Shown: positions 11,189 through 41,379 of the stretch, piece by piece
Layout: every line of letters begins with the position of its first letter
Position numbering within the stretch: position 1 is the stretch's first letter
Origin: a virus
Lineage: Duplodnaviria; Heunggongvirae; Uroviricota; Caudoviricetes
Reading direction: 5' to 3' (one strand)
DNA length: 44,032 nt
IMG/VR virus record: IMGVR_UViG_2740892015_000005
Location: 1-44,032 of that record
Program-made: the position numbers and the translations under genes
Notes under the pieces: model-generated
The model's database searches: none
Told to the model about the DNA's origin: nothing
The model's input: the letters and a program-made list of their open reading frames with translations, nothing else

Positions 11189-11497
11189 CTATCTCGCCGT
11201 AATTGATTTCATTGACCTGTAACCAGCAGCATACAGTGCAACTTCAGGCAAACAAACGCTTCCGCCATTCGCATCTGTATTTGATTTACTGATGATGCCG
11301 AGTGATATTGCTTTTTCAGAAAGACTTAAACGCTTTCTCGGTTCTTCCTGAACAGCTTCCTCACTGTCTGTGCCGAAGATCGAATCGATGATGTTGCAGA
11401 TGGAATCACGCTCGATAGCCAGCTTTCTGCGCCGCTCATGACGGCGAGTTTTGGCATTTCCTGCAAATGTTGATTTTCCGTACACGATTACCGTCAT
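11189..11497 (-). CDS. N: Antitermination protein N (P22 gene 24 type)
   Basis: N-terminal arginine-rich motif GNAKTRRHERRRKLAIER is the P22 N boxB-binding peptide. GAGGAA Shine-Dalgarno precedes the ATG at 11497; the ORF track's longer 130-aa form is probably an over-extension. Confidence 0.8.
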   Translation of the reverse strand: MTVIVYGKSTFAGNAKTRRHERRRKLAIERDSICNIIDSIFGTDSEEAVQEEPRKRLSLSEKAISLGIISKSNTDANGGSVCLPEVALYAAGYRSMKSITAR

Positions 11498-11616
11498 GAT
11501 GTTTTCCTCATGTGAAATGGCTTTGGTGGTGATGCGCCAGGTGCTGATCTTCTGGTTGCTGTCGTTGCAGCTGCAACTCACATCACCGCCAAACCCATCT
11601 CGTTTGGTATCTGTTT

Positions 11617-11650
11617 GCGCTTTGTCAGCGCCCCATCGAAGTTAAAGAGC
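11617..11650 (-). promoter_or_regulatory. nutL (boxB hairpin plus boxA-like element)
   Basis: Minus-strand GCGCTGACAAAGCGC equals the P22 boxB-left sequence. GGCTCTTTAAC, resembling boxA CGCTCTTTA, lies just upstream in the transcript. Confidence 0.65.
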
Positions 11651-11694
11651 CTGCCAATCTGTTCCGTTTGGCTTCCAGCTTCCTGCTGATGGCT

Positions 11695-11730
11695 AAATAG
11701 TACGATGTGTACTTTATTGAGTCAATACAA
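11695..11730 (-). promoter_or_regulatory. Putative PL promoter with overlapping operator palindrome
   Basis: Minus-strand TTGACT, 17-nt spacer, TACTAT. The palindrome AGTACGATGTGTACT overlaps the -10 region. Coordinates are approximate to within a few bases. Confidence 0.4.
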
Positions 11731-11789
11731 AATGTTCTAAATGCGGTTAGTTTTTTATAACACTTTGTATTTTATTGATTTATATTTTG

Positions 11790-11818
11790 GAAAAAGAAAA
11801 CCCGACGATAAGGTCGGG
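11790..11818 (-). terminator. Terminator downstream of cI (minus strand)
   Basis: CCCGAC-CTTATCG-TCGGG hairpin followed by TTTTCTTTTT on the minus strand. Confidence 0.55.
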
Positions 11819-11850
11819 TTATTGTTGTGTGTTTTAGAGTGGTGAGGCTG

Positions 11851-12510
11851 TTAACTAAATGTCTCTTCAGGCCACTGGCTGGCGATAACTTTCCCTACTA
11901 CGGAACAGCTATCATTGCATGGGATCATTGGATATTGCGGGTTTAGTGGTTGTAGGAACACCTGACCGCTATCCCTGATCAGTTTCTTGAAGGTAAACTC
12001 GTCACCACCAAGTCTGGCTATGCAGAAATCACCTGGCTCAACAGCCTGCTCAGGGTCAACGAGAATTAACATCCCGTCAGGAAAGCTTGGCTTGGATCCT
12101 GTTGGTGCGGTCATGGAATTACCTTCAACTTCAAGCCAAAACGCACAATCACTGGCTTTTTTGGTTGTGCTGACCCATCTCTCCGCATCACCTTTGGTAA
12201 AGGTTCTAAGCTCAGGCGAGAACATCCCGGCCTGAACATGAGAAAAAACAGGGTACTCATATTGTTTTTTAACGGGGGCAGATGAGTATTCGCCAACAGG
12301 TGAAAATGTACCGTCGTGGTTGAATGAGACGTTATCAATACCAAGGTATTTAAACACCACACCAATCTCGTCAAGAGATGGATGACGAGATCCGCGCAAC
12401 CAGTGACCAATTCCACCCTGCGTCATACCAAGCTCTTCAGCTAACTTCTCTTGAGTTATGCCGAGTTCTTTCATTCTGGATCTAGCCAGTTCATACCATT
12501 TCATTTTCAT
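11851..12510 (-). CDS. cI: CI-type prophage repressor (HTH N-terminal domain plus LexA/S24-like C-terminal domain)
   Basis: The C-terminal roughly 130 aa ([39 protein letters not shown]...) is near-identical to the lambda cI C-terminal domain as I recall it. The N-terminal HTH domain is different. AAGGA Shine-Dalgarno precedes the ATG at 12510 (MKMKWYEL...). Confidence 0.9.
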
Positions 12511-12567
12511 ATCCTTATTATTACGCTCTGTACTAAAACCATCCATGCACAAGATGTATTTTTTTGT

Positions 12568-12596
12568 TTGCATTCCAAAAGTACATATCGTATTAT
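12568..12596 (+). promoter_or_regulatory. Putative PR promoter / OR operator region
   Basis: TTGCAT, 17-nt spacer, TATTAT upstream of cro. AGTACATATCGTATT resembles the OL palindrome and overlaps the -10. Confidence 0.45.
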
Positions 12597-21449: not shown

Positions 21450-21773
21450 ATGAAGATGCCAGAAAAACATGACCTGTTAGCCGCCATTCTCGCGGCAAAG
21501 GAACAAGGCATCGGAGCAATCCTTGCGTTTGCAATGGCGTACCTTCGCGGCAGATATAATGGCGGTGCGTTTACAAAAACAGTAATCGACGCAACGATGT
21601 GCGCCATTATCGCCTGGTTCATTCGTGACCTTCTCGACTTCGCCGGACTAAGTAGCAATCTCGCTTATATAACGAGCGTGTTCATCGGCTACATCGGTAC
21701 TGACTCGATTGGTTCGCTTATCAAACGCTTCGCTGCTAAAAAAGCCGGAGTAGAAGATGGTGGAAATCAATAA
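21450..21773 (+). CDS. S: Holin S (class I, dual start)
   Basis: Sequence [62 protein letters not shown]... is essentially lambda S as I recall it. Confidence 0.9.
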
Positions 21774-22233
21774 TCAACGTAAGGCGTTCCTCGATATGCT
21801 GGCGTGGTCAGAGGGAACAGATAACGGACGACAGAAAACCAGAAATCATGGTTATGACGTCATTGTTGGCGGAGAGCTATTCACTGATTACTCCGATCAC
21901 CCTCGCAAAGTTGTCACGCTAAACCCCAAACTCAAATCAACAGCGGCCGGACGTTACCAGCTTCTTTCCCGTTGGTGGGATGCCTATCGTAAGCAGCTTG
22001 GCCTGAAAGATTTCTCTCCGAAAAGCCAGGACGCTGTGGCATTGCAACAGATTAAGGAACGTGGCGCTTTACCGATGATTGACCGCGGTGATATTCGTCA
22101 GGCAATCGACCGTTGCAGCAATATCTGGGCTTCACTGCCGGGCGCTGGTTATGGTCAGTTCGAGCATAAGGCTGACAGCCTGATTGCAAAATTCAAAGAA
22201 GCAGGCGGAACGGTCAGAGAGATTGAGGTATGA
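21757..22233 (+). CDS. R: Endolysin R (lytic transglycosylase)
   Basis: [51 protein letters not shown]... is essentially lambda R as I recall it. Confidence 0.9.
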
Positions 22234-22667
22234 GCAGAGTAACCGCGATTATCTCCGCTCTGGTTATCTGCATCATCGTCTGCCTGTCATGGGCTGTTAA
22301 TCATTACCGTGATAACGCCATGACCTACAAAGAGCAGCGCGATAAAGCCACATCCATCATCGCTGACATGCAGAAGCGTCAACGTGATGTAGCAGAACTC
22401 GACGCCAGATACACAAAGGAGCTTGCTGATGCTAACGCGACTATCGAAAGTCTCCGTGCTGATGTTTCTGCTGGGCGTAAGCGCCTGCAAGTCGCCGCCA
22501 CCTGTGCAAAGTCAACGACCGGAGCCAGCGGCATGGGCGATGGAGAAAGCCCAGGACTTACAGCAGATGCTGAACTCAATTATTACCGTCTCCGAAGCGG
22601 AATCGACAGGATAACCGCGCAGGTTAACTACCTGCAGGAATACATCAGGACGCAATGCCTTCGATGA
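22230..22667 (+). CDS. Rz: Spanin inner-membrane subunit Rz
   Basis: N-terminal transmembrane helix ([18 protein letters not shown]) plus coiled coil; position after R. Confidence 0.8.
22423..22614 (+). CDS. Rz1: Spanin outer-membrane lipoprotein Rz1 (embedded in Rz, +1 frame)
   Basis: Signal peptide with lipobox VSAC and a proline-rich mature region ([16 protein letters not shown]), wholly within Rz. The exact start is uncertain. Confidence 0.6.
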
Positions 22668-32936: not shown

Positions 32937-33470
32937 ATGTTAAGTGAAAACGCAAAAGATATCGAAGGATATGAAGGACTGTACGCCATCACTAATGATG
33001 GTAGAGTTTACTCGCATTCAAGAGTAAATTTGAGGGGACGCCTTATTAAGGGTAGGTGGCTAAAGCATAATCATAACGTAAATGGATATAAGTATGTGTG
33101 TTTATATAAGGATGGCGTAAAAAAGAACATACTAATACATAAGCTTGTTGCATCTCACTTTGTTGGTGGATTTGCTGAAGGGTTACAGGTAAATCATATA
33201 GATGGTGATAAATATAATAATAACTATCTAAATCTTGAATGGGTTACTCCATCAGGAAACATCTCACACTCATATGGATTGGAGTCGAGAGGTAATGTAA
33301 AAGGAGAAAGGAATGGTAATTCTAAAATATCTAATGATGATGTCATAAAGATAAAAGAAATGGTTGCCAATGGATTTCCTCAGTGTGAAGTTGCTAAATT
33401 ATTTGGAATTCACAATTCAAAGGTTAGTAGAATTGTAAATGGCAAGGCATGGAGGCATGTTAATGGCTGA
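32937..33470 (+). CDS. HNH homing endonuclease (NUMOD4-like plus HNH plus C-terminal HTH), paralogue of 30965..31549
   Basis: Shares the upstream sequence AAATCGAAACT..AAGGAGTAGATATG and the N-terminus [25 protein letters not shown] with the other gene-10-associated HNH. Motif [22 protein letters not shown]. Confidence 0.8.
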
Positions 33471-36674: not shown

Positions 36675-38782
36675 GTTTACCAGAGGGGTTTGTTCTGGAT
36701 GAACAGCCTGATAACTCACAACTTCCTGATGGCTTTGTGCTTGATTCCCAACCAGAACAGCAGCAATCTCCTTTGGTTTCACCAGAGGAAAATTCCAGAC
36801 AGGAAAATGTTGTTAATAATGCTAACGGTTTCGACCGTTTTATGTATGGCGTTCTCAGTGGATTGATGGATGTTGGTAAAGGTGTTGGCCTGTTTCAGGA
36901 TATGACACCAGAAGAGCAAGCCGCAATTCAGTCTCTACAGCAGAAGTTAGCGGCAAAACCATCAACCGCACAAGATGTTGGTGAGTTTGTTGGACAAGCA
37001 GCGCCATTTGTTAGTGGTGGTGGGATTATTTCTCAGGTTCCGAAAGGGGCGGCAAGGCTGGCTGCCGCCGCAGGGCTTGGTGCTGGAGAAGGGGCTATTG
37101 TAGCCAATGGAACAAATAGCGATGTTGCTTCCGGCGCTGCTATTGGCGCTGTGGCTGGCCCTGTAGCCGAGATTGTTGGTCCAGCGCTTGGGAAGATTGC
37201 AGGGAAAATTAAAAATAGTGCCGGGGATATTTATCGCTCATCCGTAGGGATGGGGAGTAAATCATCTAAAGCAACGTTAAAGAAAGCTGCTGGCGCAATG
37301 GATAATAAATTTATTGGCGGGCAACGAGCTATTCAAGGTTTCGCCGATGAAGTTAATCCTGATTTTAACGCGATAAATGCCATCCGTGAGCTAGAACTGG
37401 AAAATTATGCCACTCCAGGAATGATCTCTAATAATCCTGCTGTCAGGGCTCTTGATAATGCAGTGGCAAGTCTCCCTGGAACAGAGATTAGTGAGGCGCA
37501 TAAGCGCTTTATTACTGAATTAGGAAGAAAAGCTGATGAAATGATAACTTCATTTGGGGGAAACCTTGATAAGCAACTGGTTTCTGACAGGCTTGCAGAT
37601 AATTTTGATAAAACCATTTCATCATTACAAAATCAGTCAGATAACATCTACAACAAAATTGCCGAAAAGGTTCCAGTAAGAGACCGTATTGAGGCAACCA
37701 ATACATTGAATTTTTTAGAGGATTTTGCTGATGACATAGGTGGAATTGATGAATTATCTCCAATAATGAAGCGGACATTGAACCGACTTGATCCAAACAC
37801 CTTGCCAACGTATGGGCGTTTAGATCTCGCTAGAAAGCAGGTTGGGCAAGCTATTGGCAAAGGCTCTGGCCCATTCAAGGATGAAGAAACAGGTGTTCTT
37901 AAAAAGTTATATGCAGCTATAACAGATGACCAACAGGCTGTCGCAGAAAAATATGGCGCAGGGGAGTTATGGACGCTTGGTAAGGAGTTGGTAAAAAAAC
38001 GAAAATACATTGAAGATGATGCCGTAACCGTTTTGGGTAGAAAACTTCAGCAATCAGCAATTCCAAAAGTTGAAAGTGCCGTTGTTAATATGGCAAAAGG
38101 AAACGGTGGTGACTTTAGGCAATTAATGAAGTCAATTCCAAAGGATATGCGGCAGGAAGTTGCGCTCACCTCAATGAATAAAGCATTTACCAGCTATGCT
38201 AAATCACCAGGTCAGCAATTAGGGGTTGATGGATTTGTAAAATGGTATAACGGAATGTCACGCAATGGGGCCAATATGAAGGCTCTCCGTGATGCTATTG
38301 GCACAGATGCATCAAAGCGCCTTGATACGATTTATCAAGCAGCCAAGGCTATGAATAGACTCAATACTGGTAAGCAGTATGCTAGCAGCCTTGTGGATCA
38401 GCAAGTTAATAACTTTCTGAAGGAAAAGGGTAGTCTAGCAAAAATTTATGGAATAGCCTCAAAAGCTGCTGCGGCGGAAGGTGTTACAAGCTTATCTGGT
38501 CTTCCTGGTGTAGGTGCAACAGGGGTGATAACGTCCGCATTGATGTCAGGGAAAACAAGCAGGATAAAGGCTGCTGATGCTCTACTGTCTTCTCCTGAGT
38601 TTAAATCAATGCTATTTCGCCTGCAAAACGCACCAGTAGACAGAGCAGAAGTGAGACGCGTAATAGAAAGGAAACTGATGCAATCTGGGGCATTTAAGAG
38701 ATGGGAGAAAACCTTATCAACAGATGAAGCAAAAACCATTGCCCGCACGGGGATTATTACATGGCTCGCTAGTGACAGTTAG
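36659..38782 (+). CDS. Ejection protein, P22 gp16-like
   Basis: Synteny; last large gene of the head-to-ejection cluster (707 aa). Confidence 0.55.
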
Positions 38783-39006
38783 TCAACTTTGGTTATTTTG
38801 CCTTCTTTTTCTTGATGAACTTTGCATCCATCATCTTTTGATAGCCAAACTAAAAACTTTAAAACCTTAAACACAAGTACGGCTACTGCAATGAAAGCAC
38901 CAATCGCAATTATTGCTAGTGAAATTATTTGCATTGGTGCTTTTAATGCTGGGAAAACAGTGTAAATGAGCAAAAAAACAGCAATTATGATGATCCATTG
39001 CTTCAT
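38779..39006 (-). CDS. Small two-helix membrane protein (75 aa), last gene of the mnt-linked cassette
   Basis: Two hydrophobic segments (WIIIIAVFLLIYTVFPAL and IISLAIIAIGAFIAVAVLVF); AT-rich; convergent with and overlapping the gp16 stop. Confidence 0.5.
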   Translation of the reverse strand: MKQWIIIIAVFLLIYTVFPALKAPMQIISLAIIAIGAFIAVAVLVFKVLKFLVWLSKDDGCKVHQEKEGKITKVD

Positions 39007-39034
39007 GTTGTCCTCCCTGGTTTTATTGGTAAGA

Positions 39035-39595
39035 TCACTGCTTTATTTTGGTATCATGGGTTTCACTAGCGGCTTCCTTCGCAGTCGGCTCAGAAACCTT
39101 GAAGTAAGATTGAATCTGCGGAAGCGTTATGATTACCGCAAGCATAGCGAGAACCGCACCAACGAGCCATTGGGTCGCGGTCATGGATGTTTTAATGCCA
39201 TCAATTTGACCTTTGAGCCCTGCAACTTCGCCATTGCTAGCGAATATCTGTCCCTTAATTTCATTAAGTGACTGATTCATAGCTGTAAATTGCTTAGATT
39301 GGAATTCTCTGAAAGCTGAAATTTCAGCGCGCATGTTAGCAGATATTAACTCAATTTCTGCTTTGTTTTGACCAAGCTTCGCGTCAATCTCTTCTCTTGA
39401 TGGGCTGCCCATAGCATGCTCCTCAGTGTATTGTTTTCCAAGATAAGCGATATTATTGTTTTTGGTTATATCATTCTTGGTAACTGGAGGCGAAGCATTG
39501 GACTTTTCTCCGAAGCCACCTGTCGACCCCATACGACCAAGTGTTCTCTTTTTCTCCGCTGCATGATCAGCATTTACGGCAGGAAAAGTAATCAT
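39035..39595 (-). CDS. Coiled-coil protein with C-terminal transmembrane anchor (186 aa)
   Basis: Central heptad-like coiled coil (EIDAKLGQNKAEIELISANMRAEISAFREF...) followed by a transmembrane segment (QWLVGAVLAMLAVIITLP). The true start may be internal. Confidence 0.5.
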   Translation of the reverse strand: MITFPAVNADHAAEKKRTLGRMGSTGGFGEKSNASPPVTKNDITKNNNIAYLGKQYTEEHAMGSPSREEIDAKLGQNKAEIELISANMRAEISAFREFQSKQFTAMNQSLNEIKGQIFASNGEVAGLKGQIDGIKTSMTATQWLVGAVLAMLAVIITLPQIQSYFKVSEPTAKEAASETHDTKIKQ

Positions 39596-39602
39596 GGCTC
39601 TG

Positions 39603-39881
39603 TCAGCTTAATTTTTTTGATTCTTCGTGTTGAGAAACTATATACTTAGCCAGTTCAAGAAGTTGATTTTCACTCATGCGAATGTTGGCAATTTGGTATC
39701 TAACTGGCTGAATCTCCTCATTATTAACCCAGTCTGAAACATGCTTAAAAAATGCTATTGAACCAAATCTTGCTCCGACATCCCCAAAAGACGAGTAAGC
39801 AAATCCATCAGCATACTCATTTACAGCATCACTTGAGTCCTTGAAGATGGTTTCTCTGAAGTTCACTTTGGTATCTGTCAT
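39603..39881 (-). CDS. Hypothetical soluble protein (92 aa), first gene downstream of mnt
   Basis: ATG 3 nt after the mnt stop (same strand), implying co-transcription with mnt; AT-rich. Confidence 0.5.
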   Translation of the reverse strand: MTDTKVNFRETIFKDSSDAVNEYADGFAYSSFGDVGARFGSIAFFKHVSDWVNNEEIQPVRYQIANIRMSENQLLELAKYIVSQHEESKKLS

Positions 39882-39883
39882 AT

Positions 39884-40132
39884 TTATTTATCCTTACCAT
39901 ACATGGTCTTTAGCGTCTCAACATCGTGTTCAAGATCTATCAATCGTGATGCTATAGTTGCAAGGTCTAGTGCTTGAATGTGTTTATTTTTTTCGGTCCA
40001 CGCTTCAAGTGCCGCGACCATCTCAGCATTTAATGAACGAGAATTAGCCTCAGCCAGTTCAATAAGACGTTCCTTTATCTCTACAGGAAGCCTCAGATTC
40101 ACTTGAGGGTTTTTGTACTTACGATCAGACAT
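39884..40132 (-). CDS. mnt: Mnt-like ribbon-helix-helix repressor
   Basis: N-terminal RHH motif (NLRLPVEIKERLIELAEANSRSLNAEMVAALE) comparable with P22 Mnt/Arc; divergent from arc-ant. Confidence 0.7.
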   Translation of the reverse strand: MSDRKYKNPQVNLRLPVEIKERLIELAEANSRSLNAEMVAALEAWTEKNKHIQALDLATIASRLIDLEHDVETLKTMYGKDK

Positions 40133-40236
40133 CGGCGCATCCTGAATAATTATTTACCACAGGATATGTAGGTATCTATTGACTATCAATGCGTACCTAA
40201 ATACTATGTATGCGTACCACATACAAAGGAGCAAAA
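40133..40236. promoter_or_regulatory. Divergent mnt / arc-ant promoter-operator region
   Basis: Intergenic region between divergent RHH repressor genes containing two direct copies of ATGCGTACC and flanking TACTATGTA-type half-sites. Confidence 0.4.
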
Positions 40237-40383
40237 ATGAAAGTTAAGACATTAAGGATGCCAGAATGGCTGGAAAAGGCTTTGGAGCAGTCCGCGAAAA
40301 AGGATGATCGGTCGTTCAGTAATGAGGTATTGAGGAGACTAAAGGAGTCAGTAGCTAAGGATGGAATTGTTTGTCCAGAATGA
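40237..40383 (+). CDS. arc: Arc-like ribbon-helix-helix repressor (48 aa)
   Basis: AAGGAG Shine-Dalgarno; MKVKTLRMPEWLEKALEQSAKKDDRSFSNEVLRRLKE fits the Arc RHH pattern (compare P22 Arc ...PQFNLRWPREVLDLVRKVAEENGRSVNSEIYQRV). Below the ORF-track size cutoff. Confidence 0.6.
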   Translation: MKVKTLRMPEWLEKALEQSAKKDDRSFSNEVLRRLKESVAKDGIVCPE

Positions 40384-40449
40384 GTAAAGCCCAAGCTATT
40401 GCGAGTAGCTCGGGCTTAAATCGCCAGTAAATTTTGAGGAAAAACTGAC

Positions 40450-41379
40450 ATGAAAAGTATAGCAACAGCAGTATCTACTATCAACGTGCCATTCCACGGC
40501 GCAGAGCTTTATGTCGTCAATCACAACGGTGAGCCGTACACCCCAATGAAACCTATCGTTGAAGGTATGGGTATGGATTGGGCTTCACAGTTTACGAAAA
40601 TAAAGCAACGGTTTAAAACCTCCATTGTGAAAATCACAATGCAGCTTCCTGGTGATGAACAGTGCCGTGAGATTATTTGTTTGGCACTTCGCAAACTTGC
40701 TGGCTGGCTGCAAACCATCAGTCCAAACAAAGTCCGCCCTGAAATCCGCGACAAGGTAATCCAGTATCAGGAAGAGTGTGACGATGTGCTATACGAGTAC
40801 TGGACTAAAGGCCATGTAGTTAACCCACGCAAAGCTAAAAAGGCGTTGCCGGGTAAAATCACCACTGAACAGCAGGAAGCCATTAAACAACTCGTCATGA
40901 GTCGCGGTCAGTCTCTGCCAAAGGAAAAACAGGCTAAGGCGATGATCACCATGTGGTCGTCACTGAAATCCCATTTTGGATGTTCATACAAAGAAATCAG
41001 TGAGGAGCAGTTTACCGAAGCACTGTCACTTGCAGCTCGAGTTCCGCTTGAAGGTGAGTTCATTGGCAAACAAGAGAAGAAAACCAACGAGCTTTCTGCA
41101 AAAGAAGCAAACAGCCTTGTATGGCTATGGGATTATGCCAACCGCTCACAGGCATTATTCCGCGAACTGTATCCGGCATTAAAACAAATTCAATCGAACT
41201 ATTCCGGCAGATGCTACGACTACGGTCATGAATTCTCGTATGTTATCGGAATGGCGAGAGACGTTTTAATCAATCACACACGAGATGTTGATATCAATGA
41301 GCCAGACGGACCAACGAATATTTCCGCATGGATGAGACTTAAGAATAAAGAATTACCTCCTTCAGTACATAACTACTGA
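40450..41379 (+). CDS. ant: Antirepressor (P22 Ant-like)
   Basis: Position downstream of arc; 309 aa (P22 Ant is about 300 aa); N-terminal segment [32 protein letters not shown] fits the P22 antirepressor N-domain pattern. Confidence 0.65.

Follow-up and report, generated by a model that had tools for sequence, protein, structure and literature searches.

The DNA analyzed here, hereafter the window, comprises positions 1 to 44,032 of the IMG/VR virus record IMGVR_UViG_2740892015_000005 (44,032 nucleotides, nt) and is a nearly complete Escherichia coli P22-like (Lederbergvirus-type) prophage. Its mnt-like repressor gene is followed on the same strand by three small genes, orf92, orf186, and orf75, which lead up to a gene-16-type ejection protein gene, and this cassette is a mosaic of two independently mobile morons: the orf92 and orf186 pair, which is a strictly conserved two-gene unit, and orf75, which is linked to an allele of gene 16. 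The explanation that we favor, with a confidence somewhat short of even, is a four-gene mnt operon carrying two morons, in which the pair would serve as a Rex-like sensor and membrane effector and orf75 would be SieA-like. The functional statements for the pair and for orf75 are plausible ones, drawn only from position and architecture. What is new here is the conserved, uncharacterized pair and its link to HK97 gp48; that a moron may occupy such a site was already known.

The two-gene unit is best seen in a scan of IMG/VR with an orf92 profile, which returned 44 loci. At 43 of these loci, which represent 19 distinct pairs, the gene homologous to orf92 is directly adjoined by a same-strand partner gene encoding 128–224 amino acids (aa), with a gap of −14 to +12 nt, and at the 44th locus orf92 was not called by the open reading frame (ORF) picker. 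The 43 partner proteins have their only hydrophobic segment at the extreme C-terminus, followed by a tail of 1–37 residues, and fall into two sequence types, the SREEIDAKL type to which orf186 belongs and a more divergent type, in both of which a low-complexity N-terminus precedes a coiled coil and a C-terminal membrane helix. The same pair arrangement is found in Morganella P22-like prophages, a Klebsiella siphophage-type prophage, and an Arsenophonus genome. A scan with an orf186 profile added 16 further loci, all 16 of which have a same-strand gene for 96–147 aa directly upstream of the orf186 homologue. The small upstream partners belong to several families, namely orf92-like proteins, a 101-aa family, the HK542 144-aa type, a zinc-ribbon type, and the gp49 type, among which the 101-aa family is a remote homologue of orf92 (hhalign probability 81.5%, E value 1e-5, 76 columns). 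The zinc-ribbon-like partners (127 aa and 118 aa) of some orf186 homologues have two CxxC motifs, are not of the orf92 type, and share 28% identity with one another (E 2e-6).

Homologues of orf92 and orf186 with 40–86% identity occur in Serratia, Klebsiella, Enterobacter, Citrobacter, Morganella, and Yersinia. Synonymous sites of the two genes are near saturation and non-synonymous divergence ranges from 0.17 to 0.48, and the ratio of non-synonymous to synonymous divergence (dN/dS), given only where it was computable, is 0.10 for orf92 and 0.26–0.30 for orf186. Both genes are under purifying selection and clearly coding. That they might be chance ORFs is excluded by their conservation together with these ratios.

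At the 44 IMG/VR loci, the gene upstream of the pair on the same strand encodes a CI-type repressor in 25 cases and an Mnt-type repressor in 16, with 3 that could not be assigned; CI-type calls were based on helix-turn-helix and S24 peptidase-like sequence recognized by eye and on BLAST similarity to HK97 CI and related CI proteins. A tblastn search with orf186 extended the family to HK97 gp48 (38% identity over the coiled coil and membrane helix, E 3e-21), to ORFs of HK542 and HK244, and to an ORF of a Klebsiella phage, all of which lie behind cI with a small gene between, that is, in the rexAB position. Most of the 16 loci from the orf186 profile have the gene order cI, small gene, coiled-coil gene, N. 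HK022 nun and 933W stk likewise lie directly downstream of prophage repressors. The cI-downstream (cI–N) site of lambdoid phages is a known hotspot that holds rexAB and bstA, a status owed to the strong lysogenic repressor promoter (PMC8585504). The prophage in the window keeps this cI–N interval (11581–11851, ~270 nt) cargo-free, and has the pair behind mnt instead. One Klebsiella prophage carries the pair as a stand-alone, oppositely oriented island between its tail-assembly genes and the tape-measure gene, where it adjoins a gene of the YafO toxin family; the pair is thus not strictly tied to repressor operons.

The same-strand arrangement with almost no intergenic space described in the initial annotation was borne out when the sequence was read. 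The gaps are 2 nt between mnt and orf92, with AAGGA within the 3′ end of mnt, 7 nt between orf92 and orf186, and 28 nt between orf186 and orf75, with a GGGAGG ribosome-binding site ahead of orf75. No promoter-like or terminator-like site was predicted on the minus strand from 40132 to 38779. Upstream, the spacer between mnt and arc holds Pmnt-like hexamers on the minus strand at 40189–40161 and 40178–40149 and a Pant-like promoter on the plus strand at 40179–40207, all of them consensus matches only, in a layout that equals the annotated overlapping Pmnt and Pant of P22. Because of the short gaps, the ribosome-binding sites, and the lack of any predicted internal promoter or terminator, mnt, orf92, orf186, and orf75 apparently form a single operon, and its predicted transcript from Pmnt would reasonably be expected in the lysogen. 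The expression with mnt that had been proposed earlier therefore appears sound as a prediction, and the link is strengthened by the recurrence of the pair behind CI and Mnt repressors. A lysogen of the P22-like prophage Gally, LF82, transcribes the mnt gene of that prophage, which is induced 40-fold in macrophages (PMC9928086). The Mnt of the window is 32% identical to P22 Mnt (E 6e-12). The low G + C content that had been attributed to the cassette holds for orf92 (37.3%) and orf75 (33.3%) and is marginal for orf186 (43.5%), with mnt at 40.6% and the window at 46.8%.

Sequence analysis agrees with the protein anatomy first suggested, which was a soluble 92-aa protein, a 186-aa coiled-coil protein with a C-terminal anchor, and a 75-aa two-helix protein. 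The orf92 product is acidic (isoelectric point 5.0) and has no hydrophobic segment. Its AlphaFold2 (AF2) model, with a predicted local distance difference test (pLDDT) score of 73, has a disordered N-terminus, strands at residues 26–32, 39–53, and 56–70, and a C-terminal helix at 71–91, and for this strand-strand-strand-helix order the COMM-domain fold was considered, as a structural class only. An exhaustive HMMER profile search for orf92 among 1.84 billion proteins recovered only 8 representatives at 50% identity and no distant annotated relatives, and a profile search of the PDB gave one unrelated match (a designed pentatricopeptide repeat protein, E 1e-4), the rest being noise.

In orf186, the sole hydrophobic segment lies at approximately residues 143–160 of 186 and is preceded by a heptad repeat. 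The protein consists of a variable, disordered, and basic N-terminus (1–61), a conserved acidic coiled coil (62–142), the membrane helix, and a 26-residue tail; the homologue alignment puts the conserved core at residues 62–165, with the first 61 residues variable, and the a/d heptad register continues into the membrane helix. Since orf186 has a C-terminal anchor and lacks a signal peptide, most of the protein should lie in the cytoplasm, on the same side of the membrane as orf92. Met62 is nearly invariant among homologues, those of Serratia and Yersinia begin at it, and in two E. coli copies of orf186 the C-terminal ORF of 125 aa was the only one called. A second start at this methionine (Table 1), which would give a short 125-aa form as in the dual starts of holins and antiholins, is possible. 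A match of orf186 to CCDC90-like/DUF1640 (PF07798) is sub-threshold (21.5 bits against a Pfam cut-off of 33.5), some copies are labeled 'CCDC90 family protein' in RefSeq, and the PDB profile search returned only noise. A glycine-rich juxtamembrane stretch was considered as the lining of a glycine-zipper pore and rejected, the glycines being at heptad positions c and f, outside the a/d core.

The idea of a single three-gene cassette did not survive comparison with other genomes, in which orf75 is separable from the pair and tied to the gene-16 allele and other lineages have unrelated third proteins. When positions 38700–40200 were compared with 5,426 complete E. coli genomes, 204 had a partial match and only 9 a full match. 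Homology on the mnt side ends at 39876–39890, which is the mnt stop codon, and on the gene-16 side at 39005, which is the orf75 start codon; as these breakpoints fall at gene boundaries, two separable modules are indicated. The orf75 gene is present in 34 of the 5,426 genomes, and in 34 genomes this gene-16 3′ end is continuous with orf75; 9 of the 34 carry the pair and 25 do not. The 707-aa gene-16 allele is accompanied by something other than orf75 in 11 further E. coli genomes. Phages E212 and EC.P3 have gene 16 and orf75 and no pair. The mnt-coupled gene of EC.P3 encodes a different, 178-aa protein that by eye is ClpP/SppA-type serine peptidase-like, and strain L4_E1441 has two opposite-strand genes between orf75 and a different mnt operon.

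The orf75 product has two hydrophobic segments (predicted membrane helices) and a lysine-rich C-terminus. That orf75 is a coding gene is supported by three features: its ribosome-binding site is strong, it matches a PHROG over its full length, and its ORF is intact in the copies read. Only close copies exist, and dN/dS is 0.5–1.1 with only 5–16 substitutions. Third genes in P22-like contexts are not homologous to one another and encode proteins of 75 aa with two helices, of 76, 98, and 124 aa with one helix and a coiled coil, of 78 aa with two helices, and of 127 and 145 aa with signal peptides. P22-like prophages of various genera have unrelated small envelope proteins of 53–145 aa between the pair and gene 16, with either one or two membrane helices or a signal peptide. 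The interval separating gene 16 from mnt, known for its variability, has previously gone by the name 'ant moron' (PMC2629481), and the position equivalent to sieA that the initial annotation assigned to the cassette is indeed this variable interval (PMC10883804). The variable gene-16-proximal slot may hold functional analogues of SieA.

As first remarked, none of the three proteins belongs to a family that can be named. Pfam and NCBIfam scans of orf92, orf186, and orf75 gave nothing above curated thresholds and their PHROG families are of 'unknown function', so that Arc for mnt was the only named family among the four proteins of the operon. A PADLOC run, proposed earlier as a check, found no defense-system match: the PADLOC-DB v2 models left all four proteins without a match, save a 2TM effector model for orf75 at E 0.52. 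Rex, Imm, holin, and toxin–antitoxin families in Pfam, NCBIfam, and PADLOC were unmatched, RexA and RexB at E ≤ 0.1–1. The homology and structure searches of orf92, orf186, and orf75 gave no match indicating a mechanism, and literature searches on HK97 gp48 and gp49, on CCDC90 with prophage, and on the protein accessions found nothing relevant.

The characterized occupants of such sites that were checked are rexAB, bstA, and sieA, which are exclusion or abortive-infection genes (PMC8585504, PMC10883804), and the cassette resembles each of them in part. Like sieA, it occupies the interval of a P22-like prophage that separates gene 16 from mnt/gene 9 (PMC10883804), and orf75, like sieA, is convergent with gene 16 and nearly touches it. 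P22 SieA is a prophage-made inner-membrane protein (PMC10883804), and membrane placement is predicted for orf75 and orf186. Conversely, P22 SieA has 164 aa and its own promoter behind a terminator, the P22 order being mnt, orf59a, terminator, and sieA with its own promoter, whereas orf75, at 75 aa, is a two-helix protein and orf186 a single-helix one. BLASTP of P22 SieA against orf186 and orf75 gave no alignment or E > 3, the SieA motif FxRYPxEAxxFNK is absent from orf92, orf186, and orf75, and comparison with P22 orf59a found no similarity.

The likeness to RexAB is that of a repressor-linked, co-oriented two-gene unit of one soluble and one inner-membrane protein (PMC8585504), here as predicted, and the orf186-type gene of HK97, HK542/HK244, and many prophages lies exactly in the place of lambda rexAB. 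However, the pair has no sequence similarity to RexA or RexB and its products are much smaller. RexB spans the membrane four times. It is described as an ion channel (PMC8585504), whereas orf186 combines a cytoplasmic coiled coil with a single helix at its C-terminus. HK97 gp48 is a true homologue of orf186 and likewise follows a repressor gene and a small-protein gene, but gp48, gp49, and the HK542/HK244 ORFs are uncharacterized and the 144-aa partner of HK542 represents yet another family. For gp49 itself, no homology to orf92 was detected by BLAST, the direct hhalign probability was 0.35%, and passage through the 101-aa family gave 6% (E 0.006); gp49 and orf92 have an ITFxRH-like motif in common, the AF2 model of gp49 is unusable (pLDDT 46), and a relation between the two proteins is only hinted at. 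BstA of prophage BTP1 is also encoded downstream of a repressor, presumably on the same promoter, and is highly expressed in lysogeny, but it is a single protein found at phage DNA replication sites (PMC8585504), with no membrane component and no sequence relation to the pair.

In the explanation favored here, the pair would insert into any available lysogeny-repressor operon, that of Mnt in P22-like phages and that of CI in lambdoid phages. Carried on a repressor operon, it would for that reason be made in the lysogen and be opposed by convergent late transcription during lytic growth. It would act like lambda RexAB, whose hallmark is membrane depolarization triggered by infection, or like an abortive-infection pair of the toxin–antitoxin type, with the small orf92-type protein holding or sensing and with orf186 oligomerizing in the inner membrane, where it would block or abort a superinfecting phage. 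This division into a sensor or antidote and a membrane effector is suggested by the combination of a small cytoplasmic protein with an anchored coiled-coil protein, by their tight coupling, and by the interchangeable small subunits. As a small inner-membrane protein in the sieA slot, orf75 would be a SieA-like blocker of the ejection-protein conduit, and is the better candidate for an injection blocker; the defining activity of SieA is a block to DNA injection by P22-like phages that acts through gp16/gp20. It should be noted that several points weigh against this explanation. As defense or exclusion genes they are candidates only: there is no PADLOC match and no detectable similarity to the SieA, RexA/B, Imm, or holin families, and a single membrane helix followed by a periplasmic tail of 1–37 residues has no established role in pore formation. 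Pmnt-driven co-transcription is predicted only, and orf75 is without clear purifying selection in the few comparisons that were possible. Additionally, the pair is rare, with copies in 9 of the 5,426 complete E. coli genomes, at 1 locus among ~185,000 species representatives, and none found on plasmids. The place behind a repressor would also fit regulators or host-fitness genes, and phage 434 Hex, which is co-transcribed with the repressor, is reported to prevent RecA-mediated autocleavage of the repressor (PMC3564112). A wider claim, which we consider doubtful and advance only tentatively, is that an S92-superfamily protein (orf92 and relatives) and a tail-anchored coiled-coil protein, HK97 gp48 and its upstream partner included, form an unrecognized anti-phage system of Enterobacterales temperate phages that plugs into any CI or Mnt repressor operon, with a constant membrane effector, interchangeable small sensors (S92, 101-aa, gp49, HK542 144-aa, zinc-ribbon), and a mechanism unrelated to RexAB or SieA.

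Other functions are possible for the pair and its neighbor, in decreasing order of likelihood a regulatory or host-fitness role, an addiction module, and a lysis accessory. The pair might have no anti-phage role and instead serve the prophage or host in lysogeny, either through repressor stability and induction as with 434 Hex or through the envelope as with bor and lom. The constant feature of the pair is its linkage to a repressor operon, CI and Mnt alike, genes at repressor sites are not always defenses, 434 Hex being an example (PMC3564112), and the Gally mnt region is induced in macrophages (PMC9928086); yet in the Klebsiella tail-gene island the pair is unaccompanied by any repressor, the repressors that it accompanies elsewhere are of unrelated types, which argues against a specific repressor partnership, and the characterized occupants that were checked are exclusion or abortive-infection genes. 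We regard this account as unlikely, though it deserves attention. A toxin–antitoxin-like addiction module, with orf186 as membrane toxin and orf92 as antidote, would suit a small acidic protein encoded just upstream of a membrane protein at the narrow spacing seen across loci, the possible internal start for a short orf186, and the YafO toxin gene next to the Klebsiella pair. It is nevertheless very unlikely, with no similarity to toxin–antitoxin families in Pfam, NCBIfam, or PADLOC and with truncated 125-aa copies of orf186 that persist, and it overlaps with the favored explanation in that many toxin–antitoxin modules act as abortive-infection systems.

Two further alternatives would draw orf75 and orf186 into one function. 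An integrated three-component membrane system of orf92, orf186, and orf75 is consistent with the shared strand and apparent single transcript in the window, and with the small membrane or secreted protein gene that, in P22-like contexts of several genera, comes after the pair and is co-oriented with it in nearly every case. This is improbable, however, when those third genes are not homologous to one another, when orf75 so often occurs without the pair in E. coli genomes as well as in E212 and EC.P3, and when the pair lacks such a third gene both behind cI and in the Klebsiella tail-region island. The least probable alternative by far, and one to which we give hardly any weight, would have orf186 and orf75 act as lysis accessories, an XhlA-like and a class II holin-like protein. 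The coiled coil of orf186 leads into a single C-terminal membrane helix, as in PBSX XhlA and CCDC90, and a distant homologue of orf186 has a weak match to XhlA (PF10779; E 0.0046, 17.5 bits against a cut-off of 34.7); orf75 resembles class II holins in its size, its two membrane helices, and its charged C-terminus. But orf186 itself has no XhlA match, the XhlA and CCDC90 scores are under curated cut-offs, and the context of orf186 is lysogenic and not lytic, while orf75 is not consistently with the pair, belongs to a PHROG of 'unknown function', and lies, antisense to the late operon like orf186, in a lysogeny-repressor operon far from a lysis cassette that is already complete with holin, endolysin, and Rz (Table 1). 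A virion or lysis function for orf92, orf186, and orf75 was rejected on the grounds of wrong strand, wrong operon, and a lysis cassette located elsewhere, and the homology to virion or lysis components that the initial annotation had named as decisive against its proposal was not found with confidence.

The pair represents another recurrent occupant of repressor-downstream sites. Its boundaries are clear, its two-gene logic is conserved, and it has a homologue in HK97, in which exclusion has been studied genetically. Should the pair prove to be a defense, it would add a family missed by the PADLOC models scanned, would be a single module serving both immC and immI operons, and would be a compact model in which to learn how phages can be stopped by a tail-anchored coiled-coil protein. 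The separation of orf75 points to the gene-16-proximal slot, where possible SieA analogues bear on the co-evolution of ejection proteins and exclusion. If neither module has a phenotype, they would be an ordinary pair of function-unassigned morons.

Table 1. Coordinates and supporting matches for the mnt operon and other features of the window
Feature	Position	Strand	Matches and remarks
mnt-like ribbon-helix-helix repressor gene, 82 aa	39884–40132	−	first gene of the operon; Pfam Arc E 3.1e-10; phrog_795 E 7e-27
orf92 (S92 family), 92 aa	39603–39881	−	phrog_4231 E 3e-47
orf186, 186 aa	39035–39595	−	phrog_5820 E 8e-97
Internal ATG, Met62 of orf186	39410–39412	−	GAGGAG and 6-nt spacer upstream (39410–39435 region)
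orf75, 75 aa	38779–39006	−	phrog_7294 E 5e-50, full-length match
Pmnt/Pant-like divergent control region, mnt–arc spacer, 77 nt	40133–40209		
Host ABC-transporter gene, then integrase, then RecT gene	left part of window		
N	11189–11581	−	
CI-type repressor	11851–12573	−	
Holin, endolysin, and Rz lysis cassette, complete	21450–22667		
Ejection-protein genes (gp7, gp20, gp16 homologues)	34622–38782		
Gene-16-type ejection (DNA transfer) protein, 707 aa	36659–38782	+	phrog_6704 full length; phrog_770 'DNA transfer protein'
arc	40210–40383	+	Pfam Arc E 2e-5
sar-like antisense RNA	40383–40449	−	Rfam sar, 29.3 bits against a gathering score of 43, full-length model
ant	40450–41379	+	P22_AR_N E 7e-45; P22_AR_C E 5e-30

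The surroundings of the operon are those of a P22-like prophage. The gene-16 homologue follows the gp7 and gp20 homologues, and its stop codon overlaps that of the convergent orf75. On the other side, the divergent arc and ant followed by the tailspike gene repeat the arrangement of P22 immI, and the sub-threshold sar match between arc and ant suggests P22-type antisense control of ant. Within the virion assembly operon, the RefSeq annotation of an identical locus has a NUMOD4-domain gene of 177 aa (32937–33470, plus strand), which is flanked by the packaged-DNA stabilization gene and the next head/tail gene and resembles an insertion of the homing-endonuclease type. The closely related sequence NZ_OZ040490.1 has 2 nt differences from the window in 11.3 kilobases. 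The ant gene is an intact ORF of 309 aa in the window and a split pseudogene in the RefSeq annotation of NZ_OZ040490.1, and a single-base difference between the two sequences at 40687 coincides with that pseudogene annotation.

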